Under the pieces are notes generated by a model that saw only the letters and a list, made by a program, of their open reading frames with translations, had not been told where the DNA came from and did not search any database. Shown one piece after another: positions 1 through 14,982 of a stretch of DNA of 24,000 nt (position 1 is its first letter; each line of letters starts with the position of its first letter). Origin of the DNA: Belnapia rosea (GTDB lineage: Bacteria > Pseudomonadota > Alphaproteobacteria > Acetobacterales > Acetobacteraceae); the NCBI RefSeq assembly GCF_900101615.1, contig NZ_FMZX01000021.1, positions 10,336 to 34,335 on the forward strand, given 5' to 3'. The position numbers and the translations under genes were made by a program.

Positions 1-144
1 CCGTCCAGCGCGAGTGGCGCGCGGCGCAAGGGTGCGCAACACCGCGGCCCTGCCAGTCCGCCGCGGTCAGCCCGATAGTCCGCCCGCCCGCCGCGCGGCA
101 AGGGGAGTCCCCCGGTCACGGCGGCGGAGGGGTCCGGAGGGGGC

Positions 145-1473
145 ATGGTGGGAGGGCAGCCGGAGAAAGGGCGCGCGCGCGCCGGGGGAGGGCGCGCCGC
201 CCCCAAGGGTTTCCTGCTCGGCCGGCGCTGCCCAGAGCAGGCGGAACGCCGAGTCGGCTTCGTGTGCCGGACCGAGGCTCTGACAGGAGGGGGCGGGGCG
301 CCCGGCGAGGTGGTCGCCTACGGCGGCGATGCCCCGGTCATCACTATGGCGCCCACCGGGGCGGGCAAGACCAGCGGCCCAGTTGTCTCCAATCTGCTTT
401 TGTTCCCCGGCCAGGTGATCGCAGTCGACGTGAAGGGTGAGCTGCTCGCCTTGACTGGTCGACGGCGCCGCGCGATGGGGCAGGAGGTCCACGTCCTCGA
501 CCTCCGCGACGGCGCATCCGGCGGGGGGTGCCTCAACCCGCTCGATCTGGCGGCCCGTTCCGGCACTGAGGCGGCAGCCGTCGGCCGCTCCTTCGCCGCG
601 TGCCTGATCGAGCGCGGCGAGGAGCGGGACAGGTTTTGGAATGATTGGGCGGAGACCCTAATCGGCGGCGCCGCAGCTTGGCTACTGGAGGACTGCCCTC
701 CGGGAGAGCGAAGCCTCAGTCGGGTCTTCGACCTCTTCACCGACGACGATCCTGTTTATAAAATCGCAACGATGCTCGACGCCAAGAGGGTCAGGAACCG
801 CGCAGCCTACGCGGCCTTCGCGGGCTTCCTGTCGCTGCCGGACCGAGAGACGCGCCCCTGTGTACTCGGCAGCACCACGACGCATCTGCGCATATTCGAC
901 AGCGCCCTCGTACGCCGCCTCACCGACGCCACCAGCTTCGACCTAGACGCGCTCGTCGCTGGGCGCCCGATGACGATCTACATCGTCGTGCCGCCGTCCC
1001 GCCTCGCCGCCTACGCCCCGCTGCTCCGGATCTGGCTCTCAGGGCTGATGAACCTGCTCTCGCTCCGGCAGCGCGCACCTCGGCGCCGCACCTTGATGCT
1101 GGTCGACGAGGCCGCCCAGCTCGGGCGGATGCAGGCGTTTGTCTTGGCCTCGACCCTCATGCGCTCCTACGGCCTGACGCTATGGAGCGTGTGGCAGAAC
1201 GCCGCGCAGCTCGACATGTACGGCGCGCAGGCGAGGACGCTTGTCGACAACGCCGGCGCGATCCAGTTTTTCGGGGTGCGCAACATGCGCATGGCCGAGG
1301 AGCTCGCGGCGCTAGTGGGCGGCGTCGACCCGCGCGACCTCATGTCGCTCGGCCGCGACGAGCAGTACGTCCTCCTGGAGGGCGGTCTTCCACAACGGAT
1401 TGGTCAAGTTCGCTACTACGATGACCCGCTGTTCGAGGGACTGCCGGGCGGCCCACGGCGGCGCGCACGGTGA
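145..1473 (+). CDS. Type IV secretion coupling protein, TraG/VirD4/TraD family ATPase; appears N-terminally truncated (no membrane anchor)
   Basis: 442-aa ORF. Walker A context VITMAPTGAGKTSG, a downstream DVKGEL box, Walker B-like TLMLVDEAAQLG, and a C-terminal QVRYYDDPLF typical of T4CPs. An in-frame stop at 76-78 leaves at most ~70 aa before the P-loop, and none of it is hydrophobic. Canonical VirD4/TraG proteins carry two N-terminal TM helices. The start codon is uncertain (ATG 145 is the first). Confidence 0.8.
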   Translation: MVGGQPEKGRARAGGGRAAPKGFLLGRRCPEQAERRVGFVCRTEALTGGGGAPGEVVAYGGDAPVITMAPTGAGKTSGPVVSNLLLFPGQVIAVDVKGELLALTGRRRRAMGQEVHVLDLRDGASGGGCLNPLDLAARSGTEAAAVGRSFAACLIERGEERDRFWNDWAETLIGGAAAWLLEDCPPGERSLSRVFDLFTDDDPVYKIATMLDAKRVRNRAAYAAFAGFLSLPDRETRPCVLGSTTTHLRIFDSALVRRLTDATSFDLDALVAGRPMTIYIVVPPSRLAAYAPLLRIWLSGLMNLLSLRQRAPRRRTLMLVDEAAQLGRMQAFVLASTLMRSYGLTLWSVWQNAAQLDMYGAQARTLVDNAGAIQFFGVRNMRMAEELAALVGGVDPRDLMSLGRDEQYVLLEGGLPQRIGQVRYYDDPLFEGLPGGPRRRAR

Positions 1474-1573
1474 CGCCGCGCAACGGCGCGCAACCGTCTG
1501 CGGATTGCTGGCCCTAATCGCCGCGTGTTCCTGTTCGGCGCGCCGCCGGAGCGCGGCAGACAGGAGGCCGGAG

Positions 1574-2854
1574 ATGACGAGAAGGAAAACCGCTCCCCCC
1601 GCCGCGGGCATGCCGCGTCCCCACCTGGACGCTCGGCCGCACCTCAGGCGTCGCGACGCGCTCGCCCTGGCCATGGTGCTGGTGTCCCCGCCCCTCCTGT
1701 CGCCGCGCCCCGCGCGGGCGATCCCGACGCTAGCCGCGCTCGCCACTTGGGAGAACTTCAAAATCGCGGCCTCGGTGGTCGGCAGCATCGGTAGCGCCGT
1801 CACCGCAGCCTTCACCGCGCGCCGTGCTCTCGCGGCGCCCCCTGAGACCGCCGTCGAGCGCGCGGTCCAGGTGCTGACGGCGCAGCCCGCACTCCTCGAC
1901 GAGATGCTGAACTTCCGCATGGTGATACGTGAGGAGCTGGAGCGGTCCCGGGTCCATGAGATGACGGACGAACTCCGCGGCCGGGCTGAGACGGCGCGCG
2001 ACTTCCTCCTCGGAATGCCGGAGGGGCCGCGTCGCCTGGAGCTCTCGGCGCGTGAGTTCATGGAGGTGTCCCTCATCCTCAACAAGCTCGCCGGTTACGG
2101 CTCGGCGGCGATTTTTCCCTCCTATGCGGTTGGCTGCGGCGTGCAGCTGCTGCTGGCAAAGATGGCAATGGGCGACCGGGACGGGCCGCAGCCCGCCGAC
2201 ATCCGGCGCCGCATTGAGCGGCATCGGCGGCTGATCGCCGGGTGGACGGATTCGGGCCGCCCTACCAATCCGGCCGCCCTCGCCGCGGGGCTCCAGCCGG
2301 AGATCTTCGGGACCGAGGAGTGGCTCGCGGGCCCGTCCGTGGTGCGGCTGGCGGAGACCGTCGTTCGCACCGACACGCAAGTGCCCCAGGTGGTGAACGG
2401 GCAGGCCAGGACAGTCACGGAGTCCCGCTGGCACGTGAATGAGTTGTCCATCGCTTTCCTTGGCTTTGACGCCGCCGGCGAGCCGAGGACCGACCGACGG
2501 GTCACCCGCACCCTCAACTTCGCACCCGGCGCCGAGCGCCCTTATCGCTACGCGTTCCGCGCCTCGGTCGGGCACTACCCGAACGCGACACCTGTCGAGC
2601 AGATGGTGCGGTTCCCTTGCCTCACCTCGAATGACAGCTGGACATCCTGGGAAGCGCAGCCAGATGGCCAGGGACGCGTCCAGCTGCCCAACGGGCTCGC
2701 CCAGGTGCACGATGGCAAGCGGGCCTGCATTGCCGACACCTACAGAGCCAAGCGCGCCCGCCTGCTCGAGCTCCGGGACCAAGAAGCGAAATTCCTCGAC
2801 GCTCAGGCAGCCATGGTGGCCTGTATCGAGCACCTGGGCCGGATCGAGGTGTGA
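1574..2854 (+). CDS. Hypothetical exported protein (twin-arginine/Sec-like signal peptide), no family recognised
   Basis: Same frame as ORF-track entry 1400-2854. I prefer ATG 1574 because AGGAGG (1562-1567) sits 6 nt upstream. The product then begins MTRRKT...LRRRDALALAMVLVSPPLLSPRPARA-IP, which is signal-peptide-like. Its amino-acid composition is balanced, unlike the Arg/Gly/His-rich antisense ORF 1730-2905, which also runs into the IS630 end. Confidence 0.55.
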   Translation: MTRRKTAPPAAGMPRPHLDARPHLRRRDALALAMVLVSPPLLSPRPARAIPTLAALATWENFKIAASVVGSIGSAVTAAFTARRALAAPPETAVERAVQVLTAQPALLDEMLNFRMVIREELERSRVHEMTDELRGRAETARDFLLGMPEGPRRLELSAREFMEVSLILNKLAGYGSAAIFPSYAVGCGVQLLLAKMAMGDRDGPQPADIRRRIERHRRLIAGWTDSGRPTNPAALAAGLQPEIFGTEEWLAGPSVVRLAETVVRTDTQVPQVVNGQARTVTESRWHVNELSIAFLGFDAAGEPRTDRRVTRTLNFAPGAERPYRYAFRASVGHYPNATPVEQMVRFPCLTSNDSWTSWEAQPDGQGRVQLPNGLAQVHDGKRACIADTYRAKRARLLELRDQEAKFLDAQAAMVACIEHLGRIEV

Positions 2855-2877
2855 CCCGGCCGCGGGCGGCGACACTA

Positions 2878-4063
2878 GTGTCCTGACCGAGAAATAGCTG
2901 GTCACTCGTGGTTGGCTGTGATTCGCTGCGGCTGGCAGCGAGGACTGATCATGGCGACGCCGCGGGCGGTTCGGATCGAGTTGTCGGAGGCCGAGCGTGC
3001 CGAGTTGGAGACGCGGCTACGCCGGCGGAAGGTGGCGCGCGGCGACGCGGTGCGGGCGGAGATCGTGCTGCTCGCCGCTGACGGCTTGAGCAACCTGGCG
3101 ATCGTTGAGCGGCTCGGGGTGGCGCGGATGACGGTGGCGACCTGGCGGCGCCGCTTTGCCGAGCTGCGGCTCGATGGCTTGGCCGACGAGCCCCGCCCAG
3201 GTGCTCCCCGGACCGTCAGCGACGAGAAGGTCGCCGCGGTGGTGACCGCGACGCTGGAAACCCTGCCCGCGGGCCGGACGCACTGGAGTTCGCGTGGCAT
3301 GGCCAGAGCGGCCGGGCTGGCGCCGTCCACCGTGCAGCGCATCTGGAAGGCGTTCTCGCTGCAGCCGCACCGGGTGGAGACCTTCAAGCTCTCGACCGAT
3401 CCGCTGTTCGTCGAGAAGGTGCGCGACATCGTCGGCCTCTACCTCAGCCCGCCCGAGCGTGCCCTCGTGCTCTGTGTCGATGAGAAGAGCCAGATCCAGG
3501 CGCTCGACCGGACGCAGCCGCTGCTGCCGCTGCGCCCCGGCCAGGTCGAGCGGCGCACCCACGACTACAAGCGCTGCGGCACGACCTCGCTCTTCGCCGC
3601 GCTCGACGTGAAGGCCGGCACCGTCATCGGCACCTGCATGCCGCGGCACCGGGCGGCGGAATTCCGCCGCTTCCTCGACACCGTCGAGGCCCGGGTGCCG
3701 GCGGACCTCGACATCCACGTGATCATGGACAACGCGGCAAGCCACAAGACGAAGCTGGTGCGAGGCTGGTTCGCCAAGCGGCCCCGCTGGCATGTCCACT
3801 ACACCCCGACCTCGGCCTCCTGGATCAACCAGGTCGAGCGGTTCTTCGCGCTGCTGACCGACGACGCCATCCGGCGCGGCGCCCACCGTTCCACGGCGGA
3901 ACTCGAGGCCGCCATTAAGGCCTACATCGAAGCCCACAACGCCGAGCCGAAGCCGTTCACCTGGATGAAGAATGCCGATGACATCCTCGCCGCCGTCCAG
4001 CGCTTCTGCCAGCGCACCATCGCCGTCCAGGCAAAGTGCCTGGGAACTTCAGAGTCAGGACAC
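2878..4063 (+). mobile_element. IS630-family insertion sequence, apparently intact, inserted in a CTAG target with TA duplication
   Basis: Terminal inverted repeats: GTGTCCTGAC at 2878-2887 and its complement GTCAGGACAC at 4054-4063, with scattered further matches inward to ~28 bp. TA at 2876-2877 and 4064-4065 flanks the element, reconstructing C2875-TA-G4066 = CTAG. One DDE transposase ORF. Length 1186 bp, the usual IS630 size class. Confidence 0.85.
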
Positions 4064-4066
4064 TAG
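2951..4066 (+). CDS. IS630-family DDE transposase
   Basis: 371 aa from ATG 2951 (the ORF-track start 2912 is an upstream alternative). N-terminal HTH region (LSNLAIVERLGVARMTVATWRRRF). Core blocks VLCVDEKSQIQAL, HVIMDNAASHKT and YTPTSASWINQVERFF are characteristic of IS630/Tc1-mariner-type transposases. The stop TAG 4064-4066 is built from the duplicated target TA plus the first flanking base. Confidence 0.9.
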   Translation: MATPRAVRIELSEAERAELETRLRRRKVARGDAVRAEIVLLAADGLSNLAIVERLGVARMTVATWRRRFAELRLDGLADEPRPGAPRTVSDEKVAAVVTATLETLPAGRTHWSSRGMARAAGLAPSTVQRIWKAFSLQPHRVETFKLSTDPLFVEKVRDIVGLYLSPPERALVLCVDEKSQIQALDRTQPLLPLRPGQVERRTHDYKRCGTTSLFAALDVKAGTVIGTCMPRHRAAEFRRFLDTVEARVPADLDIHVIMDNAASHKTKLVRGWFAKRPRWHVHYTPTSASWINQVERFFALLTDDAIRRGAHRSTAELEAAIKAYIEAHNAEPKPFTWMKNADDILAAVQRFCQRTIAVQAKCLGTSESGH

Positions 4067-4262
4067 CCGCTAAGTAGCACTGCACTGCGTGCAGGATGCC
4101 TTGGTAGCCGACCAGCAGCGCCTCGGAATGCTCGGCGCAACGACTTAGCGCATAGTGGAACACCATCACCGGCAAGTCCGGCACTGCTGCTACAGCCTTG
4201 GGGGACGGGGCGCCGCGTTACTCGAAAACGAGGCCGCCCGGAGGCGTACGAAATACAAGCAG

Positions 4263-4290
4263 TTCAAGGGCTCCCGGGTCAGAGTACAAT
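4263..4290 (+). promoter_or_regulatory. Candidate sigma70-type promoter upstream of the twin-GTPase operon
   Basis: TTCAAG (4263-4268), a 16-nt spacer, then TACAAT (4285-4290). The predicted start site falls inside the palindrome at 4291-4311, about 100 nt upstream of ATG 4396. Sequence match only. Confidence 0.3.
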
Positions 4291-4316
4291 CGTCGCGCCG
4301 GATGCGCGACGGTTTT
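4291..4316 (+). terminator. GC-rich perfect hairpin followed by GTTTT; either an intrinsic terminator or a palindromic operator
   Basis: CGTCGCGC (4291-4298) pairs perfectly with GCGCGACG (4304-4311) around the 5-nt loop CGGAT, followed by GTTTTGG (4312-4318). Because it abuts the candidate -10 box, it could instead be a repressor-binding palindrome at +1. Confidence 0.35.
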
Positions 4317-4395
4317 GGAGGTTAACGAGTATGTGATCTGCCGTTCCGTGTTGTCCGACGGTAGCGTCAGCGGCAGGCCCTTTGACGGAGGCGGC

Positions 4396-5031
4396 ATGTT
4401 CGGCTTGGAACTCGCGGGGCTCTATTTGGCAAAATGGGCCTACGACAACGTCGCCCCGCAGCTCGCGCGGGCACTCGCCTCCCCGCCGCCCCCTGACCAT
4501 CCTTCACAGGTCATTGCTCTAGTGGGCGCGACCTGCGCCGGTAAGTCCACGCTCGGGAACCGCTTGGCGGGGCGCGCGGCCTTCGAGACCGGGCCGACGC
4601 ACGGGACGACTTCCCGTACCCACGACGCAACTTGGCGCGGCGGCTGGGTGATCAGGGACACGCCCGGCCTGCTCGACGACAGGTCTCCCGACCCGGTCTC
4701 CGTCTCTCGGACGGCCAAGGTTGTCGTCTACGTCGCCTCCGGCCAGCTGCTGCGCCCGGAACTCGACGCTCTGCGCCGGATCCGCGAGTGGCAGCGGCGG
4801 GAGACGGGCCGGGGTGCGCGGGAGCGCCACGCTGTCCTCTTTTGTGGCAAGGCCGACCAGCGTCACGGCGCGATGCCGCGCGCCGAGGCCGAACGCGTGG
4901 AGCAGGAGGTGCGCTCGCAGATGGCGGACCTGATGCCCTCCGATCACGTCGTATTCGGTTCGGCGCTGAACCCGGATTGCGCGGGCGTGCGCCGGCTCGG
5001 GAACCTTCTCGCGCGCCTCTCCAGCGCCTGA
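4396..5031 (+). CDS. Small P-loop GTPase (Era/EngA-like MMR_HSR1-type G domain)
   Basis: 211 aa from ATG 4396, with GGAGG at 4386-4390, 5 nt upstream. G1 GATCAGKST (4525-4551), a THGTT switch-I candidate, G3 DTPG (4657-4668), G4-like CGKADQ, G5-like GSAL. The ORF-track TTG start at 4198 would read through the hairpin at 4291-4311. GTG 4333 is a possible alternative start. Confidence 0.8.
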   Translation: MFGLELAGLYLAKWAYDNVAPQLARALASPPPPDHPSQVIALVGATCAGKSTLGNRLAGRAAFETGPTHGTTSRTHDATWRGGWVIRDTPGLLDDRSPDPVSVSRTAKVVVYVASGQLLRPELDALRRIREWQRRETGRGARERHAVLFCGKADQRHGAMPRAEAERVEQEVRSQMADLMPSDHVVFGSALNPDCAGVRRLGNLLARLSSA

Positions 5032-5073
5032 TACGAGGCAAGGACTGCAAATCCAAGGATCGGAGGGAGTGGG

Positions 5074-6390
5074 ATGCTCGACGACACGTCGCCGCCGGAC
5101 AACGCGGCGCTCAGGGCCGAGATGGAGCAGGTGCAACGGGAGCTGAGCGGCGCGCTCGAGAGCCTGCTCAAGGAGGCGGGGGCCCGCCTGAAGCCCGCCG
5201 AACGGGACGAGATCGTCGCGGAGTTCAAGGAACTCGACATCCTGCTCGAGCGCCTGAAGAGTGGCCTCGTCTGGATCGCCATCTTCGGGCGCACCACGGC
5301 AGGCAAGTCGGCGGTAACCAATGCCATCATGGGCGCGGACGTGGCAAAGGTCGGCATCCAGCACGACCTGACGCGAGAGGCCACGGCCTTTGAGAAGCGG
5401 CCCTGGAAGATCGTCGACGTGCCCGGGGTAATGGGGAACGAGGTCCTGGAGGATCTCGCCGTGACCGAGGCGAAGCGGGCACTCGGCCACGTCTTCGTCA
5501 TCGAAGCGGAGCCGTTCGCCCCCGAGATCAAGCTCTTCGACGCGGTGCATGCCGCGACGCCGGACACCCAGAAAATCGTCCTCTTCAACAAATGGGACAT
5601 GTACGAGGGGCGGATCCCCGCGGCGGACGTCGCCATGGTGAAGGCGAAGGTCTTCGAGAAGATGCGCAAGTATGTTGCGTCCGACGAGGACATCGTCTTC
5701 GGCAGCGCGCTCCGCTATGACCCGGCATCGGACATGATGGTCCGCCAGGAACTGCCGCAGCTCATGGACCGCCTCTACGCGGGCGCCGGGACACTCGGGC
5801 AGGTCATCAACGTCATCGACCCGGCCAACCGGGCCTCCGAACTCCTCGCGGGCATATCGGGCAAGGTCGCCGCGGTCCGGACCAAGGTGGCTCGGAAGGT
5901 GGTCTTCGCGTACGGCCTCGCTTCTGTCGCGGGCGGCGCGGTGCCCCTCGACACGCTCACGGTCCAGCCCGGCCTCTTCGCCAGCGAGGTGTTCGTGCTG
6001 TCGCGCATCTTCGGCAAGACCATGCGGGCGGCCGACGTTAAGGGTACCGCGAAGGAACTCCTGAAAACCTGCGGCATCCTGTTCGCCGCCGAGTTCGCGG
6101 CGATCACCGCGGCTGACGTCGCCAGCACCGTCGCGTCCGTCTTCGTCCCGTTCCTGGCGCCAATCTTCGGCATCGCCGACGCCGCTCTGCTGTCCTGGTA
6201 CAGGTACCGCCGGGCGGTCATCTTCGGCGAGGTCGCCATGGAGTACGTGAAGCGGGACTTCTCCTGGGGAGGCGAGGAGCCGAGGGCAATTATAGCCGAG
6301 TGCAAGGCGCGCGCGCAGAAGCACTACGCCCGCTTCGAAAAGGCTTCCGACGCCTTCGGCGCTGCCGGGGCGGCTGGCCGCCGGGCCTGA
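5074..6390 (+). CDS. GTPase with N-terminal helical segment and C-terminal DUF697-like hydrophobic module
   Basis: 438 aa, with SD GGAGGGAG at 5062-5069. G1 GRTTAGKS (5287-5310), G3 DVPG (5416-5427), G4 NKWD (5587-5598), G5-like GSAL. The C-terminal ~190 aa contains AYGLASVAGGAVPLDTLTVQPGLFASEVFVLSRIFG and ILFAAEFAAITAADVASTVASVFVPFLAPIFGIADAALLSWY, which resemble the DUF697/YcjF-type membrane-associated domain. Confidence 0.85.
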   Translation: MLDDTSPPDNAALRAEMEQVQRELSGALESLLKEAGARLKPAERDEIVAEFKELDILLERLKSGLVWIAIFGRTTAGKSAVTNAIMGADVAKVGIQHDLTREATAFEKRPWKIVDVPGVMGNEVLEDLAVTEAKRALGHVFVIEAEPFAPEIKLFDAVHAATPDTQKIVLFNKWDMYEGRIPAADVAMVKAKVFEKMRKYVASDEDIVFGSALRYDPASDMMVRQELPQLMDRLYAGAGTLGQVINVIDPANRASELLAGISGKVAAVRTKVARKVVFAYGLASVAGGAVPLDTLTVQPGLFASEVFVLSRIFGKTMRAADVKGTAKELLKTCGILFAAEFAAITAADVASTVASVFVPFLAPIFGIADAALLSWYRYRRAVIFGEVAMEYVKRDFSWGGEEPRAIIAECKARAQKHYARFEKASDAFGAAGAAGRRA

Positions 6391-7139
6391 TGTCGGACCC
6401 TCTCCACACGCTCGTCGACTTGGCGACGCTGATGGACGCTTACGACCGCGCCGCCGAGGCGCTGTTCTGTATCCGCAGCGGGGCCACCGCCGCGGCGCAC
6501 GGCGCGGCCCTGGTTGGGGCGTCGGAGGTGATAGGCGCCTACCTGGAGGACCGCGCCCGAGGTGCGGGGCTGGCCATGCCGCAGGCGCGGCGCGCCCACC
6601 GGGCCGGGGTGGCCTGCCTCGCGGGGCTGGCCGCCGAGTGGGGCCGGGGACCGCCGGCCCCACTCCGCGTCCGTGCCTTCCGCCAAGCGACCGGCGCCTG
6701 CCTCAGCCATTGGGGCGACTTCATCCAGTGCGCCGTCGCCGAGGACTCCTGCGCTCAGGTCTGGCTGGCCCCCGCCTTCAGCTTCATGACGGCGGTGGCG
6801 GCGGGCTCGCGCAGGCATGCCCAGGACGCGGTGTCCGAGTGCGACCCCGCGCCCGGCGCGCCGTCCGCGGCCGTCTACGCCGAGGAACTACGCCGGGCAG
6901 TCCTCAGCGGACTACGCGAAGTAAAATACCATTCCGAAAAGACGCTCCGCGGCACCTGGGCGAGCGAGGTGGCAGTGAGCGAGTCAAACGCTTTCGCGCG
7001 GACCTTCGTAGACGGTGTCATGGGTGCATTCGGTGACGCCAGCATGCACGGGGAGCACGGCCGCATCCGCGTCGTCCGGCGCAAGGCCGAGTACGTGAAA
7101 AAGCTCAGCCTTGAGCTGGAGACACGCTTGCATGGTTGA
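6390..7139 (+). CDS. Hypothetical protein, translationally coupled to the upstream GTPase
   Basis: ATG 6390 overlaps the upstream TGA (6388-6390) as TGATG. 249 aa, Ala-rich N-terminal half and a charged C-terminus (KAEYVKKLSLELETRLHG). No domain recognised. Several spurious GC-driven ORFs overlap it. Confidence 0.55.
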   Translation: MSDPLHTLVDLATLMDAYDRAAEALFCIRSGATAAAHGAALVGASEVIGAYLEDRARGAGLAMPQARRAHRAGVACLAGLAAEWGRGPPAPLRVRAFRQATGACLSHWGDFIQCAVAEDSCAQVWLAPAFSFMTAVAAGSRRHAQDAVSECDPAPGAPSAAVYAEELRRAVLSGLREVKYHSEKTLRGTWASEVAVSESNAFARTFVDGVMGAFGDASMHGEHGRIRVVRRKAEYVKKLSLELETRLHG

Positions 7140-7204
7140 CAGCCCGGCGCGCGACTGTGGCGGGCGTCGGCAGGAGAAACGTAAGTACCAGCGGGCTCAT
7201 GCCC

Positions 7205-8705
7205 CTATCTGTATGCCAGCCGCTTTGACGTACCCTGGCGACCACGGTGGCCGACCACGACTGGCCTCGGTCTATCGCAGTCCGGAGAGCAGTAATGGCA
7301 CTGCTTGCAGATCAGCCTACCGCACCGCTCGCAGCTTGCGTTCACCCCAATGACCAGCGGGAAGGTGTTGCAGGCGTAGCCACCCCTCTCGCCCCCGCAG
7401 TTGGCATAGACGGTTCTCACCGTGCCGTCCGCTGTCTTCCCGACCAGAACATGCGGGCCTTGGACGTTGAAATGGACGAAGGAGAGCTCCTGCGCCGCGA
7501 CTCCATCCCCTGCTTTGCCGAGAAGGTCGAACAGGCCCGCGATTGACTCTGTCGAATCGTGCAGACCGCCGCACTGGCTTTCCTCAAGGTCGATGGCGAC
7601 CTCGTACGGGTTGCCTGCACGTCCTTCCTGGACTGCGTACGGGAAAGGACGGCCGGGAGCGGCGGGATGTTCCCGCAGGCGGGGCCTGCTCCGGACCCTC
7701 GTCGACAGCGACCCGAAGATGCTGCCGGGCTTGAGGGGACGTTCGTGACTGCCGAACTCTTCGAAGGTGACCATGTCTCGGAGGAAGCGGATGAACTCCG
7801 AGGGCCTGCCGACCTTCTTGCATCTCTTCATGAATTCGGAGATGGCGAACATGGCGATGGTGGCTTTGGAGTAGCCAGCGCTTTTGACCGTTAACGAAAA
7901 CCGGTCGACGATGCTCTTCTGCTCATCATCCAGCTCTCCGTAGAGAGCGGCCTCTTTTTCTCGGCCGCACGCGATGGCGGCGGCGAGGGTAGTCTCCTGC
8001 CATCCTGCGAAGGTTCGCGCTAGGTCAAATAGCTGCTCGTAATCCGGGGCGACGCCGGGCAGCTCGAACGCCCATGCGGGCAGCTTGTCATCATGAAACT
8101 GGATGGTCACGGCGTGTTCGCGGCCCGGCAGCTCGTTGATTGCCGCCTTGACCTTCTCGATATCGGTGAGCTGAACTACGCCGAGGAAAACTTGGTGTGG
8201 CCTCACCGGCCTCCAATGCTCCGTTGCTACGCCAGCGATGGCGACGTCACGACCAGCGACGCGCTTGAACTCCTTGACGTACGGATGTGGGCATCCCTGT
8301 CCGTACTGCAGGTGGTTCTTTACATCCAGATGGTGACCGTTCGCCACAATGTCGCAGCGTTGCCAAAGGCCGGACGAGCTCTTTAGCTGCGTGAGAGATA
8401 CGTCCTCGGCCGGGCACCCGTACACCTTCGGGATGAACTCTAGGACGAGCCGCTCAGCCATTCGGGCGTATGCCATGCGCTTGATGAGGTTCTTGGCTTT
8501 CTCCGGCTGACTTGGTGGGAGACCCAGGCCGCGCGACCAGATCTCGATCAACCGTTTGTCGTCGTCGCTGATACCGCGAACCGAGGATAATACGTACTCC
8601 CCGGCCTCTTCCGTCACCGAAACTAATTCCTCGGCCCGTGCGGCGTCTTCGACGAGTTCCGGGCGGATCGTGTAAAGGTTGAACTTCTTGAGTGGGGCCG
8701 AATGC
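7205..8705 (-). pseudogene. 3' portion of a ~618-aa gene interrupted by IS66; PD-(D/E)xK-like nuclease motif plus C-terminal Cys-rich zinc-ribbon-like region
   Basis: The minus-strand frame is open from the IS66 junction (8705) to stop TAG at 7205-7207, and is in phase with the 5' fragment at 11294-11657 once the IS and one TSD copy are removed. Motifs: MAERLVLEF ... RCDIVANGHHLDVKN (8315-8359), an E...D...DxK pattern. Also CERCGRLICKQCHYCSPDC (~7277-7335). The ORF track lists only the remnant 7205-8617 (GTG start). Confidence 0.8.
8698..8705. repeat. Left copy of the 8-bp IS66 target-site duplication (CCGAATGC)
   Basis: CCGAATGC lies immediately outside IRL and is identical to 11294-11301 immediately outside IRR. 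Confidence 0.9.
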
Positions 8706-8764
8706 GTAAGCGTCGCGGCGACTGCACATTGCGAAGCGGGCTAGGCTTGTGATCGAAGTCGGTC

Positions 8765-9247
8765 ATGGGCAAGACGCAGATGCCGCTGACCGAGGTTGAG
8801 GACGCTCCTACGATTACTCGTATGAGTGTGCTTGAGAAGCCGGTGGAGGTGATCACCCGCGGCGAGCGGCGGCGGGTTTGGACGGACGCGCAGAAGCGCG
8901 ACATCGTCCTGGAAAGCCTGGAGCCGGGCGGCTCGCCGGTTGCGGTGGCGCGGCGGCACGGCGTTGGCACCGGCCTGCTCTACACTTGGCGTCGGCAGAT
9001 GGTGGAGGGGCAGCTCAAGGCGTTGATGCCCGCGGCGCCGAGCTTCGTGCCGGTCGCCGCGGTGCCTGACGGCGCGGTTGCGGCAGTAGATCCGCCGGTG
9101 CCGGAGGCGCCATGCTCAGCTGCGAGACCCGATGCCGCACCCGCCCCGATCGAGATCGTGCTGCCTGACGGCGTGATGGTACGGGTGAGTGCGGCGGTGG
9201 AGGCGGCGGCGCTGCGCCGGGTGCTGGCCGCGTTGGGGCGGCGATGA
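8765..9247 (+). CDS. tnpA: IS66-family accessory protein TnpA (Orf1)
   Basis: Contains VEVITRGERRRVWTDAQKRDIVLESLEPGGSPVAVARRHGVGTGLLYTWRRQM, the conserved IS66 Orf1 HTH block. ATG 8822 (MSVLEKP...) is an equally plausible start. Confidence 0.85.
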   Translation: MGKTQMPLTEVEDAPTITRMSVLEKPVEVITRGERRRVWTDAQKRDIVLESLEPGGSPVAVARRHGVGTGLLYTWRRQMVEGQLKALMPAAPSFVPVAAVPDGAVAAVDPPVPEAPCSAARPDAAPAPIEIVLPDGVMVRVSAAVEAAALRRVLAALGRR

Positions 9248-9594
9248 TCGCGCCGCCTGCGGGATTGCGGATCTGGCTGGCCTGCGGCGCCACCGACATG
9301 CGCAAAGGGATGACGGGCCTGGCGATGCTGGTGCAGCAGGGCTTGGCTGAGGATCCATTCAGCGGGGCGGTGTACGCCTTTCGTGGCCGCCGAGCCGGGC
9401 TGATCAAGCTGCTCTGGCACGATGGGGTTGGCCTGTGCCTGCTGACCAAGCGGCTGGAACAAGGCCAATTCCCTTGGCCGACGACCGCCACGACAGGATG
9501 CATCGCCTTGTCGACGGCGCAGCTGGCGGCGCTGCTCGATGGCTGCGAGTGGCGCGCTCCGGTGGCGCGCCGCAGGCCGGAACTGGCGGGGTAA
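9244..9594 (+). CDS. tnpB: IS66-family protein TnpB (Orf2)
   Basis: ATGA overlap with the tnpA stop. GLRIWLACGATDMRKGMTGLAMLVQQGLAEDPFSGAVYAFRGRRAGLIKLLWHDGVGLCLLTKRLE is the signature IS66 Orf2 sequence. Confidence 0.92.
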   Translation: MIAPPAGLRIWLACGATDMRKGMTGLAMLVQQGLAEDPFSGAVYAFRGRRAGLIKLLWHDGVGLCLLTKRLEQGQFPWPTTATTGCIALSTAQLAALLDGCEWRAPVARRRPELAG

Positions 9595-9656
9595 CAGCGC
9601 TGCGATTCGGTCTGAAATGGTAGGCCCGACGCGATGGCCTTTGGCATCATCCGGGC

Positions 9657-11228
9657 GTGCAGATCGACCTCGACACGCTGCCCGATGATCCCGCCATCCT
9701 GCAGCAGATGCTGCGGGATGTGGTGCACCAGCACGGCGCGTTGCATGCCGAGAACGACAAGCTGCGGCTGCTGATCCAGCGCCTGCTGCGGCAGCAGTTC
9801 GGTCGCCGATCGGAGCAACTGAGCCCGGACCAGCTGCAGCTCGGGCTCGAGGATCTCGAGCAGAGCGTCGCCGAGAACCAGGCCGGGCAGGACGCGGCGA
9901 AGGCCCAGCAGGGCCGCCGCCCGGCACCAGCCCGGCGCAACCACGGTGCCCTGCCGGAGCATCTGCCGCGCTACGAGGTGCTGGTCGACGTCGAGCGCCG
10001 CGACTGCCCCTGCTGCGGCGGCACGCTGCATGCCATCGGCGAGCTCCGCACCGAGCAGCTCGACATCGTGCCCGCTCAGCTGCGGGTCCGGGTCACCCGC
10101 CGCCCGCGCTACGCCTGCCGGGCCTGCGAGAGCGCGGTGGTGGTGGCGCCCGCGCCGGAGCGGCCGATCGATGGCGGTATGGCGACCGAGGCGCTGATCG
10201 TGCATGTGCTGGTGAGCAAGTTCTGTGACAGCCTGCCGCTCTACCGCCAGGCGCAGATGCTGGCGCGGCAGGGCATCACCCTCGACCGCTCGACGCTCAG
10301 CACCTGGGTCGGCCGGGCCTGCTGGTGGCTGACCCCGCTCTATGACCTGCTGGTCGGCACGGCGCTGTCCGCGGCCAAGCTGTTCGCCGATGACACGACA
10401 TTGCCGGTGCTCGACCCGGGCCGTGGCCGGACCAAGACCGGACGGCTCTGGTGTTACGCGGTCGATGACCGGCCATGGTGCGGCCCAAGCCATCCGGTTG
10501 CGGCCTACGTCTACACCGAGGATCGCAAAGGCACCCGCCCAGCCGGGCATCTTGCAGCATTCCGCGGCGTGCTGCAGGTCGATGGCTACCCTGGGTTCAA
10601 GCGGCTGGCGGGCGATCGCGCCGACGCCTCGGTCGGCCTGGCGTTCTGCTGGGCCCACATGCGGCGGTACTTCTACGAGTTCCACACCTCCACCCAATCG
10701 CCGCTCGCGGCCGAGGTGCTGGCGCAGGTCCAGGCGCTCTACGCGATCGAGGGCCAGATCCGTGGCCATCCCGCCGAACATCGACGACAGGCGCGGCAGG
10801 ACCGCAGTCGACCGATTGTCGAGGCCCTGCATGCCTGGCTGCAGGTCCACCAGGGCCGTGTCTCCGCCGCCTCGGACCTCGCCAAGGCCATCCGCTACGC
10901 CTTGCGGCATTGGCCCGGCCTGACGGTGTTCCTCGACGATGGCCGGGTCGAGATGGACTCGAACGTGGTCGAGCGCGCCATCAGGCCCGTGGCCCTCGGG
11001 CGCAAGAATGCACTGTTCGCCGGGAGCGATGGCGGAGCGCGGCACTGGGCGATGGCCATGACGCTTATCCAAACCGCCAAGCTGAACGGCGTCGACCCGC
11101 AGGCCTGGCTTACCGACGTGCTGGAGCGCGTCGTCTCCGGCCGGACCAAAGCCACCGAGTTGGAAACCCTGTTGCCGTGGAACTGGACGCCCAGTAACTC
11201 GGCCGCGGCACCCGCTGTCGCGGCGTAG
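9657..11228 (+). CDS. tnpC: IS66-family transposase TnpC
   Basis: 523 aa, GTG start. N-terminal leucine-zipper-like region (LRLLIQRLLRQQFGRRSE), a zinc-finger-like CPCCGG...CRACE, and a DDE core with blocks LFADDTTLPVL, LQVDGYPGF and CWAHMRRYF. Confidence 0.92.
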   Translation: MQIDLDTLPDDPAILQQMLRDVVHQHGALHAENDKLRLLIQRLLRQQFGRRSEQLSPDQLQLGLEDLEQSVAENQAGQDAAKAQQGRRPAPARRNHGALPEHLPRYEVLVDVERRDCPCCGGTLHAIGELRTEQLDIVPAQLRVRVTRRPRYACRACESAVVVAPAPERPIDGGMATEALIVHVLVSKFCDSLPLYRQAQMLARQGITLDRSTLSTWVGRACWWLTPLYDLLVGTALSAAKLFADDTTLPVLDPGRGRTKTGRLWCYAVDDRPWCGPSHPVAAYVYTEDRKGTRPAGHLAAFRGVLQVDGYPGFKRLAGDRADASVGLAFCWAHMRRYFYEFHTSTQSPLAAEVLAQVQALYAIEGQIRGHPAEHRRQARQDRSRPIVEALHAWLQVHQGRVSAASDLAKAIRYALRHWPGLTVFLDDGRVEMDSNVVERAIRPVALGRKNALFAGSDGGARHWAMAMTLIQTAKLNGVDPQAWLTDVLERVVSGRTKATELETLLPWNWTPSNSAAAPAVAA

Positions 11229-11293
11229 CCGCCGAGCTCAACCAGCCCCCACCGTCAATGCAACTCTGCCCATGCCGCCGCCGCGACGCTTAC

Positions 11294-11301
11294 CCGAATG
11301 C
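11294..11301. repeat. Right copy of the 8-bp IS66 target-site duplication (CCGAATGC)
   Basis: Identical to 8698-8705 and directly abuts IRR. Confidence 0.9.
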
Positions 11302-11657
11302 GACAGGGCGCCGTGGTACGGCTCCGCATGGGAGTCCCTGATGGCCATAAAGGCTTCGACCTTTCCAACGAGGTCGCGGAGAAGGGCCTCATCCCTGCAG
11401 TAGCGATGGTGCCAGAGTGCCTTTTCTTCGGCCCAGGTAAGGCGCTCCAAGTGTTCCGCATGGAGGTTCGCCGCCACAACGCGGCGCTTTCTCCCTGCGG
11501 TGAACATTTTGACGTCGGTGACCTTCACGAGGATTGCTTGGCTCTCCTCGTTCAGGAGGAGGTCGTAGCGCTCGTCCGGCTTCGGCTGAGGAACGTCGGA
11601 GGTGGGTGGCGGATTCCACAGCAGTTCCCTCAGCCTGTCGAGCAACGCCCCAATCAT
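11294..11657 (-). pseudogene. 5' portion (first ~121 codons) of the IS66-interrupted ~618-aa gene
   Basis: ATG at 11657-11655 (MIGALLDRLRELLW...), reading to ...GALSHS at the IS66 junction. The ORF-track entry 11238-11657 continues into IRR as a chimeric tail (GKRRGGGMGRVALTVGAG). Confidence 0.75.
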
Positions 11658-11692
11658 TCGATACTCGCCCCTACGGCCTTAATCCTGCTCGA

Positions 11693-11709
11693 AAGAGGCC
11701 CAGCCTCTT
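11693..11709 (-). terminator. Short hairpin between the recombinase and the disrupted gene (weak terminator candidate)
   Basis: AAGAGGC (11693-11699) and GCCTCTT (11703-11709) form a 7-bp stem with a 3-nt loop. It lies ~67 nt downstream of the recombinase stop, with only a short T run after it on the minus strand. Confidence 0.25.
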
Positions 11710-11775
11710 GATGAACTTGCCCCCGACCTTGGAGCAGTTGGAGTGAGAAAATTTGTTCGTGGTGGTCCGTTTCGC

Positions 11776-12552
11776 TTAGGATGATGCGAGCCTCCGCTCT
11801 ATGTCAGGACCCCGGCCCGTATCTATCACGCGCTTAACCTGCATCGGGTGCCAGGCCAGCCCACCGGCCGGCGCTGGCACGCCGCGCGCGGTGAGCGCCA
11901 TAGCGAGCTCGCGCAATGTCTTCGCGCCTGCACGTCGCGCGGCTTCGACATAAGGCAGAACATCGGCAGCGCGGGCGCGCGACATTTGCTGTTTTACCGC
12001 CGCCGCTGCGCGCGCTTGGTCGGGCGTACCTGCGCGCAGGCGCGGGTTACCGAGCACAACGCCCCGCGTTTTCGCCATGCCCAGCGCCGCGCGCGTCCGC
12101 TGGCTGATCAGCCCGGCTTCAAGCTCGGCGACGGCAGCCATTTGCGTGACGAGAAATTTGCCCACTGGGCCAGGTGGCACCATCGGCAAATCGCAGAACA
12201 CCACGCCTCCTTCACCGCTTCCCTCTACGACTCCAAGGAGGAAGCGCGCATTGCGTGCGAGGCGATCTAACTTGGCGATCAGCAGCGTCGCGCGCTGCGC
12301 GCGGCAGGCGGCGAGCGCCGCGGCGAGCTGCGGCCGGTCGTTCCTTTTGCCGCTCTCGACCTCTTGGAACTCCGCAATCACCTCGCCCCCGCCGGCGACG
12401 TGCCGGGCCACTGCCTCGCGTTGGGCGTCGAGACCGAGGCCAGAACGCCCCTGACGCTCGGTGCTCACGCGGTAGTAGGCGACAAAGCGCGACGTAAGAT
12501 CCGGACTGGACGGCGCGGGCCGCTGGACAGGCGTTGCAGTCGTCGTGCGCAC
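11776..12552 (-). CDS. Serine recombinase (resolvase/invertase family)
   Basis: 258 aa, GTG start 6 nt after the KAP stop. Catalytic-Ser block FVAYYRVSTERQGRSGLGLDAQ (~12451-12480 for AYYRVSTERQ). Also EVESGKRNDRPQL, LLIAKLDRLARNARF and LISQRTRAAL, and a C-terminal HTH-like TLRELAMALTARGV. Confidence 0.9.
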   Translation of the reverse strand: MRTTTATPVQRPAPSSPDLTSRFVAYYRVSTERQGRSGLGLDAQREAVARHVAGGGEVIAEFQEVESGKRNDRPQLAAALAACRAQRATLLIAKLDRLARNARFLLGVVEGSGEGGVVFCDLPMVPPGPVGKFLVTQMAAVAELEAGLISQRTRAALGMAKTRGVVLGNPRLRAGTPDQARAAAAVKQQMSRARAADVLPYVEAARRAGAKTLRELAMALTARGVPAPAGGLAWHPMQVKRVIDTGRGPDIERRLASS

Positions 12553-12558
12553 GCCCGC

Positions 12559-14745
12559 TTACTCTGCCCGAAGCCACGCCGGCACGGGCAGAAGCGCTTC
12601 TTCGGCTCCTCGCTCGACGAACGTGTCGCGCAACTTGCGCAAGTCCTCCAGCATCCGGAACTGGAGCGGCGTAGCGGTCGCCGCGTCCCACACTAGGCCG
12701 AGCGCCCCAGATGTCAGAAAGGCCTCGGGAACAGCGGTCGCGCGCAGGGCAATGTCGCCGCGCAGCGCAAACCAGAGCAAGTCCAACAGGCGCCTAGCAT
12801 TCTCCTGCACCGCCGGCCGACTCGGCGCCTCTACCAGCACGGCCGCCGCTCCGCGGACGGCCGACGCTCGCCAGAGTGGCCCATTAGGATCGAGGAGCGC
12901 CGTCCGGTCCAGATCGGAGCCGTCCATGCGCAGCAGCTCCTCTACCCCGCCTCTTTGCTCAAGGCGGGCCAGCGCCTCTGTACCGTCCGGGGCAAGGCGG
13001 GTCCGCAAAGTGGCGCGCAGGCGGCTCTCACCGCCCGTTACGCGCTGTAGAATCCCCTCTGCGCTTTCGACTGCCTCAATGTAAACGCGCTGCTGCGCGC
13101 CGGCGGAGTCGGCCCATTTCGAGAGGAGGGTGAGCTCCCGTGCTCGGGCCTCGGCATCCGCCGTGTTGCGCGCATAGCGTTCCCACTGGCTGGCCGCGGA
13201 CAGTAGCGCCGGGAACGCGATGGCCCGCACGTCTTCTGGCGGGAGGCTGGGGAGTCCGTCATCGGCCAATGTGCCCAAGAGGGCCAGGCTTGTCCCGGCC
13301 TCGGCAAGGAGCTTGGCATGCTCGGAGGCAAGCATGGTGTCGGCGGCAATGCCGAGCGCGCTGCTGTAGCCAGTGCACAGCGCGAGGATCAAGGTTACTG
13401 CCAAGCCTCGTGCGGTGACGCCCCTCTGGGTGGCCTGCTGCCCAACCCATTCGGCAATGCCTTCCGCAGATGTGCCTTCGCGGAAGAGCTGGAGGACGTT
13501 ATCGTGGTCAGCCCAAGTGGCACCTTCCGACGCTTCGGTCAAAAGCCGCACCGTGCGGTAGACCCTACCAGAGTCACTGATACCAACGTCCTGCAGCCAG
13601 ACGCCGCATAACTGCAAGATGTTGTCGGTAGACATGCCTACGCGAGGGATTGCGTACCGATCAAGCAATCCCGAGACGCGCTCGCGCTCCTTCTGCTCGC
13701 CCTTTTCCTTATCCATCAAGCGTTCAAGTTGACGGTTACGGCGTGTGATGCCGTCGGAGCCGAAGGCGTTGAAAGTGTCCTCGACGTAGGCGTGGAAGAA
13801 CGCCTCGTCCACCTCGCGCAGGAGGGATGCGCAGATGGCGGACCGCCAGTCGAGCTCGTCTTGGCGGTGTCGGCGCGCCTCTTCCTCCATCAGCGACAGA
13901 CCGCGCGCCAGAGCTTTGAGTTGCCGCGGATTGGGCGGCAGCACCTCTTCGAGGCCGGCCGCCGCGCCGTGCGGCACAAAGGGGCACGCGCGCGCTGTCT
14001 CGGCCTCGAACAGACGGCGCCGTTCGGCTAGACCGATTGCCGGGAGCCGGACGCGGAAGTCAAGAATCTTGTCAAGGAAGCGCCGCCCATCGCCCCAAGC
14101 CTTATTATACTCCTGGAGCGACGCAGCTACGACATCCTCATCGAACGGCAGCAGGAAGGAGTAGCCCGGCAGGTCGAGAACGTCGCGCAGCGCGAGGAGC
14201 AGGCCGGGCAGCAAACGCGGATCGGCGCGGTCGAGGTCGTCCAGAATCACCACCACGCGCCGATCCGGTCCGAGCGCCGCACGCACCTCTTTCAAATGCC
14301 CAGGGCCGATCTCTAAAAATTTCGTCGCGGCCGACTGGATCGCCTGGGTAGCTTTGCTGGCCTTCGCAGCTTCGGCCAAACGCCTTGCCGCATCACGGCC
14401 GGTGACAAACGCCCTGAGTCTTGTCGTCGCTTGCGGCTCAATCTTGCGCGCGTCAGCCGCTTTCAGGACGGCCGACGCTAAGCCAGCCCAGAGATCTTCG
14501 GCCGTAGCCGACGCGGTGGGCGCGAACCATGCCACCAAGTGGCCGTCGCCTTCGACGAGGGCTTTTGTCCATCCAGCAACAGTGGACTTGCCCTCCCCCC
14601 AGTCGCCGAGCAGTCCGACCCGGACGGACCAGTCGGCCGGTGTCCCGGTTAGCAGGCGGTGCAATCGCCGGGCCACGTGCCGACGTTCGAGGAGGTCGTC
14701 AGCGGCGTCGTCCAATGCCGCGTCGTAGCCACCCATTGCCGTCAT
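12559..14745 (-). CDS. KAP-family P-loop NTPase
   Basis: 728 aa. Walker A VGLLGDWGEGKST (~14586-14609) and Walker B VVVILDDLDRADP (~14224-14256), followed by LLALRDVLDLPGYSFLLPFD, the classic KAP pattern. No hydrophobic insertion between Walker A and B. No obvious SD upstream of the ATG. Confidence 0.88.
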   Translation of the reverse strand: MTAMGGYDAALDDAADDLLERRHVARRLHRLLTGTPADWSVRVGLLGDWGEGKSTVAGWTKALVEGDGHLVAWFAPTASATAEDLWAGLASAVLKAADARKIEPQATTRLRAFVTGRDAARRLAEAAKASKATQAIQSAATKFLEIGPGHLKEVRAALGPDRRVVVILDDLDRADPRLLPGLLLALRDVLDLPGYSFLLPFDEDVVAASLQEYNKAWGDGRRFLDKILDFRVRLPAIGLAERRRLFEAETARACPFVPHGAAAGLEEVLPPNPRQLKALARGLSLMEEEARRHRQDELDWRSAICASLLREVDEAFFHAYVEDTFNAFGSDGITRRNRQLERLMDKEKGEQKERERVSGLLDRYAIPRVGMSTDNILQLCGVWLQDVGISDSGRVYRTVRLLTEASEGATWADHDNVLQLFREGTSAEGIAEWVGQQATQRGVTARGLAVTLILALCTGYSSALGIAADTMLASEHAKLLAEAGTSLALLGTLADDGLPSLPPEDVRAIAFPALLSAASQWERYARNTADAEARARELTLLSKWADSAGAQQRVYIEAVESAEGILQRVTGGESRLRATLRTRLAPDGTEALARLEQRGGVEELLRMDGSDLDRTALLDPNGPLWRASAVRGAAAVLVEAPSRPAVQENARRLLDLLWFALRGDIALRATAVPEAFLTSGALGLVWDAATATPLQFRMLEDLRKLRDTFVERGAEEALLPVPAWLRAE

Positions 14746-14747
14746 GG

Positions 14748-14808
14748 GACAAAATTCTTAGTTTGGTCGAGCATCGTCCATACGATGCCTTCAATCATGA
14801 ATTTTGTC
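14748..14808. promoter_or_regulatory. Nested inverted repeats abutting the KAP start codon
   Basis: The outer perfect 10-bp IR is GACAAAATTC (14748-14757) with GAATTTTGTC (14799-14808). The nearly concentric inner 7-bp IR is GCATCGT (14771-14777) with ACGATGC (14782-14788). The outer arm ends 2 nt from the KAP ATG (14745-14743, minus strand). Confidence 0.45.
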
Positions 14809-14826
14809 ACGGATCCAAACGAGCGT

Positions 14827-14855
14827 TTGACGGTCCGTGACAACGCAACGATAGT
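14827..14855 (+). promoter_or_regulatory. Candidate sigma70-type promoter of the HTH-dynamin operon
   Basis: TTGACG (14827-14832), a 17-nt spacer, then GATAGT (14850-14855). It lies in the AT-rich divergent intergenic region, ~125 nt upstream of ATG 14983. Confidence 0.4.
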
Positions 14856-14863
14856 CTCTCAAG

Positions 14864-14881: not shown

Positions 14882-14982
14882 CACGAATTAAGTAGCAATA
14901 TGCGTCTGGTGCATTTTTACTTTTAATACGTTTCGATACGTGTGAGGGTGTCGGCAGGGCGACGGGATCAAAGGAGGCATCG

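Follow-up and report, generated by a model that had tools for sequence, protein, structure and literature searches.

The subject of this analysis is a pair of adjacent GTPase genes, G1 and G2, and the gene that follows them, G3, in a stretch of 24,000 nucleotides (nt) from Belnapia rosea (contig NZ_FMZX01000021.1, positions 10,336 to 34,335). The whole stretch is called the window, and positions are given in its numbering. G1 and G2 are read as the core of a rare, horizontally transferred, membrane-associated twin-GTPase conflict system (defence or abortive infection); we infer this function and give it an even chance. The conserved core is G1 plus G2, not the triplet. The strongest functional clue is the presence of caspase-like proteases near the GTPase pair, which was missed in the first-pass annotation of this DNA. 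The three genes are as follows (lengths in amino acids, aa).

4396..5031, + strand: G1, small TRAFAC GTPase, 211 aa; Pfam MMR_HSR1 match.
5074..6390, + strand: G2, three-part GTPase, 438 aa; Pfam MMR_HSR1 match.
6390..7139, + strand: G3, all-alpha orphan protein, 249 aa; coupled to G2 via a TGATG overlap.

G1, G2 and G3 are real, intact and translationally coupled genes. The TGATG overlap of the G2 stop and the G3 start, described in the first-pass annotation, is found at 6388-6392. Ribosome-binding sites precede the G1 ATG (GGAGG) and G2 (GGAGGG). The GC content at third codon positions (GC3) is 84-90% across the three frames (0.84 for G1), and the GC content of the region is 66-71%. A 714-aa antisense open reading frame (ORF; 4519-6663) has the GC3 pattern of a shadow frame. 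Terminator-like sites occur at chance frequency. No conserved element upstream of G1 is common to the window and to the closest related locus (L001).

The two G domains were described earlier as complete-looking, and all of the motif strings quoted then are present in these ORFs. The G domain matches to MMR_HSR1 (PF01926; cut-off, 21.9 bits) reach 44.3 bits for G1 (E 2e-11) and 38.9 bits for G2 (E 1e-9). The features of the two proteins are the following.

4525-4551, + strand: G1 P-loop, GATCAGKST.
4657-4668, + strand: G1 DTPG.
4846-4857, + strand: G1 degenerate G4, GKAD.
4957-4968, + strand: G1 G5, GSAL.
5101-5262, + strand: two N-terminal helices of G2, residues 10-63 (G2 family alignment, A1).
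5287-5310, + strand: G2 P-loop, GRTTAGKS.
5416-5427, + strand: G2 DVPG.
5587-5598, + strand: G2 NKWD.
5701-5712, + strand: G2 GSAL.
5821-6387, + strand: hydrophobic helical C-terminal module of G2, residues ~250-438; remotely DUF697-like.

At the N-terminus of G1, a short hydrophobic segment (MFGLELAGLYLAKWAY) precedes a Pro-rich linker; the G domain, whose Walker B region reads VIRDTPG, follows. In the alignment of the G1 family (A4, 14 members), residues G44, G49, K50, S51, D88, T89, P90, G91, Q117, L118, E122 and D154 are invariant. The corresponding motifs are GxxxxGKS, a switch-I Thr, DTPG, a family-specific GQLxRPE, a degenerate NxxD G4 and FGSA. G1 is 57% identical to its L001 counterpart. 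The G1 proteins of L022, L024 and plasmid pANACY.04 carry an extra hydrophobic N-terminal domain of 115 aa with a weak DUF697 match (E 0.0025). The term "Era-like", applied to G1 previously, holds only in the sense of a generic TRAFAC G domain. The catalytic Gln that follows DxxG is absent from both proteins and is replaced by a hydrophobic residue (DTPGL in G1, DVPGV in G2). Lack of this Gln is associated with GTPases activated by dimerisation or dependent on a partner for catalysis.

G2 comprises the N-terminal helices, the G domain (Walker B region, IVDVPG) and the C-terminal module. Alignment A1 has 71 invariant columns; the linker between the G domain and the C-terminal module is conserved (LPQLxDRLY..AGTLGQ..N..DPA). 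Two hydrophobic helical hairpins lie in the module, with Kyte-Doolittle hydropathy peaks of 1.6-2.4. The AlphaFold2 model of G2 has a mean predicted local distance difference test score (pLDDT) of 71. Given these hairpins and the hydrophobic N-terminus of G1, a membrane location of both proteins is plausible. The helices and the hydrophobic module stand as first described; the proposed likeness to DUF697 is remote, and that to YcjF was lost, since a profile comparison (hhalign) with E. coli YcjF found nothing. No match to PF05128 (DUF697) was obtained with the window G2, whole or as its isolated C-terminal part, or with the isolated L001 module. PF05128 is matched by four of the 11 G2 family members (best E 1e-5). 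The Hsp70::G2 fusion of L024 scores 23.9 bits against it (cut-off, 27.7) and spans positions 1-157 of the 162-position profile. In hhalign, A1 aligns weakly with the DUF697-like N-termini found in long forms of G1 (E 0.002, probability 13%). AIG1 is weakly matched by all 11 members and IIGP weakly by six of them, all below the curated cut-offs. In a Foldseek search with the whole G2, the top PDB matches are Irga6, Irgb6, Irgb10 and GM4951, then mitofusin-1 and Toc34 (template modelling score, TM-score, ~0.3). By sequence, the nearest relatives of the G2 G domain are EngA/Der, HydF, EngB and LeoA.

The G2 family is represented by 12 clusters among 5.8 billion (5.8e9) proteins and occurs in 11 of 185,579 species genomes. 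These belong to Heliobacteriaceae, Isosphaeraceae, Nostoc, Scytonema, Okeania, Fibrella, Larkinella and Haliscomenobacter (Firmicutes, Planctomycetes, Cyanobacteria and Bacteroidota). G2 is also found in 15 metagenome loci and on one mobilizable Anabaena plasmid. Searches of IMG/VR contigs and of 50,697 phage genomes gave no relative. A second GTPase gene flanks G2 in nearly all of the ~25 related loci with flanking sequence, in five phyla; the gene maps of L006 and L014 have no second GTPase. Partner type A is the small G1 form, mostly upstream of G2 (downstream in L024, L029 and L034). Partner type B is a protein of 565-600 aa whose C-terminal G domain is 28-47% identical to that of G2. The order of the two genes varies between loci; their linkage persists. 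Distances among the G1 proteins correlate with those among the G2 proteins (Mantel r=0.67, p=2e-4, 12 loci); both genes therefore travelled and diverged together. Adjacency and correlation together support the treatment of G1 and G2 as a unit in the first-pass annotation. Housekeeping orthology (Era, Der/EngA, EngB, HflX, MnmE, YlqF) was not found: the best model scores are 13-33 bits against NCBIfam cut-offs of 116-953, and no KH domain and no second G domain were found in a Pfam scan of G1 and G2.

Caspase-superfamily genes (CHAT or Peptidase_C14) lie near the GTPase pair in seven of ~20 independent loci; in the five listed from L005/L016 onwards they adjoin the pair or are a few genes away.

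L001: CHAT.
Window and L010: CHAT, 862 aa.
L005/L016: C14-nSTAND1-WD40.
L006: PDZ-CHAT and TPR-CHAT.
L008: CHAT.
L012: TPR-CHAT.
L014: TPR-CHAT and C14.

Such genes normally make up well below 1% of a genome, and against this baseline, which is one of general knowledge, the caspase-like neighbours look far above chance. Local CHAT and C14 hidden Markov models (HMMs) detected no further proteases in the metagenome contigs, which are mostly short. Other neighbours are a ThsB-like TIR protein and a TPR-DUF697 protein (L023), a Pkinase-TPR protein (L013) and a vWA/DUF58 protein (L022).

In the closest locus (L001-L004), where G2 is 65% identical, one strand reads u326, CHAT, G1, G2, G3. A soluble VirD4-like ATPase gene, a 65-aa gene and a ThiF-like gene diverge from this block. 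In the genome of the window, the CHAT gene lies 1.1 kb upstream of the window edge: the Logan contig L010, which matches window positions 1-9856 at 100% identity, adds 4.9 kb to the left, with u322 and then the 862-aa CHAT gene (intact His/Cys dyad), divergent from the VirD4-like gene. CHAT, the VirD4-like ATPase, G1, G2 and G3 therefore co-occur in two rearranged loci. BLAST detected no similarity between u322 and u326, which precede CHAT in the two loci, or between either of them and the neighbours of other VirD4-like genes.

G3 is a clade-specific accessory. The first-pass annotation proposed a three-gene unit, which is not upheld: G3 occurs in only one other lineage, though the two-GTPase core does co-occur across genomes. 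Its statement that G3 has no recognisable domain was correct (no match in Pfam, NCBIfam or PADLOC). G3 has one homologue, P0014 (36% identity, E 1e-48). P0014 was the single relative both in a word-indexed search (5.8e9 proteins) and when 1.84e9 representatives were searched exhaustively with an HMMER profile. No further relatives were found with a local HMM over all fetched loci or by tblastn against plasmids, and the G3 profile has no similarity to the 248-261 aa proteins that close the cyanobacterial operons. The C-terminal 17-mer RRKAEYVKKLSLELETR (nt 7077-7127) is identical in both known members despite synonymous DNA changes, a pattern expected of a docking peptide; as judged from these two sequences, the peptide is under purifying selection. 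The AlphaFold2 model of G3 is all helices, of low confidence (pLDDT 53). A third G3 match, P0015, was rejected as a repeat-protein artefact.

The heterodimerisation, membrane insertion, trigger and output of G1-G2 are proposed as follows. The short hydrophobic N-terminus of G1 and the C-terminal hairpins of G2 would hold the two proteins at the inner membrane, where they would meet. They would form a heterodimeric GTPase activated by nucleotide-dependent dimerisation; each has a hydrophobic residue at the position of the catalytic Gln. Upon a cue from infection or stress, GTP would drive pairing of the G domains, which would rearrange the N- and C-terminal helices of G2. The output would be either direct membrane perturbation or recruitment or licensing of the neighbouring 862-aa CHAT protease, and either would lead to growth arrest or cell death. 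In this clade, G3 may serve as a specific adaptor and dock with its C-terminal amphipathic helix, which is invariant. The system may further include the soluble VirD4-like ATPase, for instance as a DNA or substrate sensor; alternatively, this ATPase may be just a backbone gene of the mobile element.

In its fullest form, the proposal is that G1-G2 is an undescribed immune switch, a membrane heterodimer of the IRG/GIMAP/Leo kind that licenses CHAT or damages the membrane and so aborts infection, with clade-specific G3 adaptors and a VirD4-like ATPase that could sense foreign DNA. This is put forward tentatively, with less than an even chance of holding in full. If this holds, eukaryotic cell-autonomous immunity driven by GTPases would have a counterpart in prokaryotes. 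The switch would differ in architecture from both Eleos and the predicted DO-GTPase systems and make up a third class of paired-GTPase defence; it would also place caspase-like proteases at the membrane under the control of a GTPase. Cell death under GTPase control is a familiar feature of eukaryotic immunity (IRG, GBP, GIMAP); in bacteria, to our knowledge, this logic is largely untested. For DUF697-like membrane modules and the large family of orphan soluble VirD4-like ATPases, the proposal would offer a first lead to their function. The module is small (211 + 438 aa), has clear targets for point mutation and is testable in a heterologous host.

Several points weigh against a conflict system built on G1 and G2. 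PADLOC v2 has no model for the family. In roughly half of the loci (L015, L019, L020, L021, L030, L034, L035), neither an effector nor a defence gene can be recognised near the pair. The caspase enrichment is set against a baseline of general knowledge, and CHAT genes are numerous in cyanobacteria, which weakens some of the CHAT associations. At the window locus, CHAT lies ~6 kb from G1 on the opposite strand, with the VirD4-like gene, u426 and an insertion sequence (IS) of the IS630 family between them; because of this distance, orientation and these intervening genes, a functional link between CHAT and G1 in the window is drawn by analogy with L001. The G4 motif of the window G1 is GKAD where the family has N-x-x-D, which could impair guanine binding. 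No promoter-like (sigma-70-like) site was found for G1-G3, and the IS630 insertion may have uncoupled the genes from an upstream promoter. Membrane insertion is a prediction from hydropathy and a model of moderate confidence.

An unlikely alternative is that G1-G2 is a non-immune membrane-homeostasis module (remodelling, repair or traffic under stress) whose protease neighbours are coincidental. Models for such a role are the Bacillus subtilis dynamin DynA and the E. coli pair of an NTPase and a DUF697 protein, YcjX-YcjF. The DUF697-like hydrophobic module of G2 fits this role, as does the two-part design of the E. coli pair, in which the YcjF (DUF697) gene directly follows and overlaps the gene of the P-loop NTPase YcjX. 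Ordinary metabolic or transport neighbours in about half of the loci, and the many members in filamentous cyanobacteria, which have complex membranes, point the same way. However, a housekeeping role predicts broad vertical conservation and the family is extremely rare and patchy; G1-G2 is found on a mobilizable plasmid and amid IS elements; adjacent CHAT, C14, TIR or STAND genes recur in unrelated phyla; and YcjF itself has no detectable similarity to G2.

The flanks of G1-G3 bear on the further alternatives to a conflict system. They contain the following features.

145..1473, + strand: soluble VirD4/TraG-like ATPase (like a type IV coupling protein, T4CP), 442 aa; Pfam T4SS-DNA_transf, E 9e-51, 173.6 bits.
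1574..2854, + strand: u426, unknown function, 426 aa; between the VirD4-like gene and G1.
2875..4066, + strand: IS630-family element, 1192 bp; DDE_3 and HTH domains, 32-nt inverted repeats.
11776-14745, - strand: KAP-family P-loop NTPase, 728 aa, PifA/QatA-like, directly upstream of a serine resolvase; E 5e-22.
15254-17461, + strand: HTH-dynamin protein, 735 aa; HTH_3, Dynamin_N and a C-terminal region matching LeoBC/LeoA (E 1e-12/1e-10).
18429-23958, - strand: BrxHI (E 6e-264), BrxD (E 2e-198) and PglZ (E 5e-200) in a row.

The VirD4-like gene was first taken for a conjugation-gene remnant. This description no longer applies: the ATPase is intact and full-length for its family and lacks a transmembrane (TM) anchor (none predicted; maximal 19-residue hydropathy, 1.38). 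Its P-loop reads PTGAGKT and its Walker B motif LMLVDE, and the sister locus L001 has a counterpart at 48% identity. It matches the Cag5 structure 8DOL (E 8.5e-19). Its family is large (585+ clusters, ~406 aa) and also occurs away from GTPases; the role of this TM-less family appears to be undescribed. Three members (L051-L053) sit beside RHS toxins and variable unknown genes, and none has a close relative on PLSDB plasmids. Since the family is far broader than the GTPase pair, and the association is seen at two loci, the ATPase could be a facultative partner, paralleling the HerA-like ATPase of a cyanobacterial variant operon, or a backbone gene of the element that carries the cargo.

It is improbable that G1-G3 are carried as the cargo of a mobile element or form part of its machinery, and act with the VirD4-like ATPase in DNA transfer, entry exclusion or maintenance of the element instead of host defence. 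The ATPase stays linked to G1-G3 in both loci of the clade despite rearrangement; a DUF87/HerA ATPase follows the GTPase genes in L024 and pANACY.04; L029 adjoins a Strawberry-notch-type helicase typical of conjugative elements; and IS elements and a resolvase surround the window locus. The DUF87/HerA and VirD4-like ATPases, which we take to belong to the same FtsK-HerA superfamily by established classification, have no detectable similarity to each other. On the other side, ~18 other G1-G2 loci have no VirD4-like gene, and the VirD4-like family occurs without GTPases and without type IV secretion system (T4SS) or relaxase genes. No T4SS genes were found near the ATPase in the window, L001, L051, L052 or L053. 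The window ATPase lacks the membrane anchor that coupling proteins need and has no close relative among 72,556 plasmids.

The IS630 element interrupts the locus and is no part of the system. Its terminal inverted repeats are at 2875-2906 and 4035-4066; the u426 stop lies ~20 nt to its left, and 329 nt separate it from the start of G1. The position of G1-G3 between it and an IS66-disrupted gene agrees with the first-pass annotation. A second assembly, L009 (GCA_900104205.1, FMXZ01000024.1), equals window positions 2875-16390 at 99.97% identity and has wholly different DNA to the left of IS630, which indicates either an IS630-mediated rearrangement between strains or an assembly join at a repeat. 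That the window copy of G1-G3 is a decaying, non-functional remnant in an IS-ridden region is also rather improbable. The IS630 element upstream of G1, the IS66 insertion in the neighbouring gene, the GKAD motif in place of NKxD and the missing promoter-like site would suit decay; against it stand three intact ORFs with ribosome-binding sites, coupling and coding-type GC3, all of the other family-invariant motifs, and identical copies in three independent assemblies.

The disrupted gene encodes a Cys-rich protein of 618 aa and is split by IS66 (~8700-11300) into halves at 7205-8617 (- strand) and ~11238-11657 (- strand). An intact copy, 90% identical, is present on plasmid 1 of Roseomonas gilardii U14-5 (NZ_CP015585.1) in a different context, which also points to the Acetobacteraceae as the origin of the window. 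The half at 7205-8617 (u470, the C-terminal 470 aa; no Pfam match) was rejected as a component, being a fragment of this unrelated gene. The N-terminus of u426 has a twin-arginine-type signal (RRRDALALAMVLV...ARA), which suggests an exported protein. u426 has no Pfam, NCBIfam or PADLOC match and no counterpart in L001, and its absence from the sister locus makes its membership in the system doubtful. ORF 1400-2854 has no similarity to the CHAT and u326 proteins of L001.

The mobile-element context proposed earlier is borne out as a mobile defence island, with BREX genes, the KAP NTPase and the HTH-dynamin protein. BrxHI, BrxD and PglZ form the end of a BREX type 2/6-like system cut by the window edge. 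The KAP NTPase is likely a stand-alone defence or abortive-infection gene on a small mobile unit. The fusion of a dynamin-like GTPase to a DNA-binding domain is an unusual architecture.

Other gene arrangements were observed at related loci. A vWA-PP2C-Ser/Thr kinase triad (TerY-P-like) lies beside the sister locus (L001, 11376-14984; L002, 14013-17314). In a variant contig, a pentapeptide-TIR protein and a TPR-AAA_16 STAND-like protein also lie next to this locus, another defence-island setting. The cyanobacterial variant operon (L054, Anabaena cylindrica PCC 7122 plasmid pANACY.04, 20931-31389; L024) starts with the Hsp70::G2 fusion. It continues with a 777-aa zinc-ribbon protein with sub-threshold DO-GTPase1/2 similarity and a GUN4-domain protein, and ends with a G1 with the N-terminal DUF697-like domain, the DUF87/HerA ATPase and a 248-aa unknown protein. 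In the Bacteroidota Fibrella and Larkinella (L017/L018, 8242-19826), the GTPase pair has a different set of partners. It is the first part of a conserved block of genes on one strand, which goes on with a WG-repeat protein, a lysozyme-like protein, an AAA ATPase and two unknown proteins; an HTH gene diverges from the block.

Among known systems, Eleos (LeoA/LeoBC) and the DO-GTPase systems resemble G1-G2 in the pairing of two GTPase genes. For a dynamin-like system of two genes, anti-phage activity has been validated (bioRxiv 10.1101/2022.05.11.491447). Like Eleos, G1-G2 has two consecutive GTPase genes, with BREX, the KAP NTPase and the HTH-dynamin gene within 17 kb, and the G domain and its preceding helix are detectably homologous. 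Unlike Eleos, about a quarter of each Leo profile is matched (LeoA, 55-206 of 559; LeoBC, 53-141 of 601), dynamin helical bundles are absent, G1 is minimal and G2 ends in a DUF697-like hydrophobic module. That G1-G2 is a compact member of Eleos is highly improbable: its best PADLOC matches are LeoA and LeoBC (G1, E 1.7e-8; G2, E 5e-12; L024 proteins, to 1e-17) and the LeoA structure 4AUR matches A1 (E 1.6e-5, query residues 12-177), but the matched profile positions, 53-206 only of models 559-601 long, cover the pre-P-loop helix and the first half of the G domain, which holds the P-loop, G1 and G2 have neither the neck nor the trunk or stalk of a dynamin, and the NCBIfam LeoA/HP0731 model (DLP_LeoA_gen) gives 15.2 bits against a cut-off of 325. 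The compact dynamin relative envisaged in the first-pass annotation was thus not recovered. The similarity to YkfA, one of the CP4-island GTPases that it listed (YkfA/YfjP/YeeP), is that of a generic G domain (hhalign of the G1 family with YkfA, 81 columns from the P-loop to strand 4, 20% identity, E 7e-9).

As in eukaryotic GTPases of immunity (septin/GIMAP/IRG/Toc group), the helices of G2 flank a G domain without the catalytic Gln. Compared with IRG, mitofusin-1 and Toc34, the identity is 11-17% at the low TM-scores given above; the likeness of G2 to eukaryotic immunity GTPases is one of architecture. Like DUF697 proteins and YcjF-YcjX, the module combines an NTPase with a hydrophobic helical membrane domain, and some members cover almost the full PF05128 profile. 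Unlike in YcjX-YcjF, where the NTPase is a separate DUF463 ATPase, the GTPase is here fused to the module.

The DO-GTPase systems are predicted conflict systems of paired GTPases and caspase effectors (Kaur, Burroughs, Iyer and Aravind 2020, PMC7159879). G1-G2 shares with them side-by-side paralogous TRAFAC GTPase genes (dimer predicted), frequent membrane association and a sporadic mobile distribution, as well as an all-alpha companion, variable effectors that include caspase-superfamily peptidases and TIR, and occasional Hsp70 partners. It differs in several respects. G1 and G2 match neither DO-GTPase1 nor DO-GTPase2 (PF19975, PF19993; searched to E 10); these models were present in the library, because the zinc-ribbon protein of pANACY.04 matches them below threshold. 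The Walker B motifs of G1 and G2 (DTPG/DVPG) lack the Glu conserved in DO-GTPases. No GAP1 protein and no GASH or FNIII component is found, and G3, u426 and u470 have no Pfam match. The DO-GTPase systems are reported to be nearly absent from cyanobacteria (PMC7159879), whereas the G1-G2 family is common there. The theme of paired GTPases and caspases is anticipated by earlier comparative genomics, and the G1-G2 module, which by these tests belongs to no named family, is thematically a variant within GTPase-centred conflict systems.

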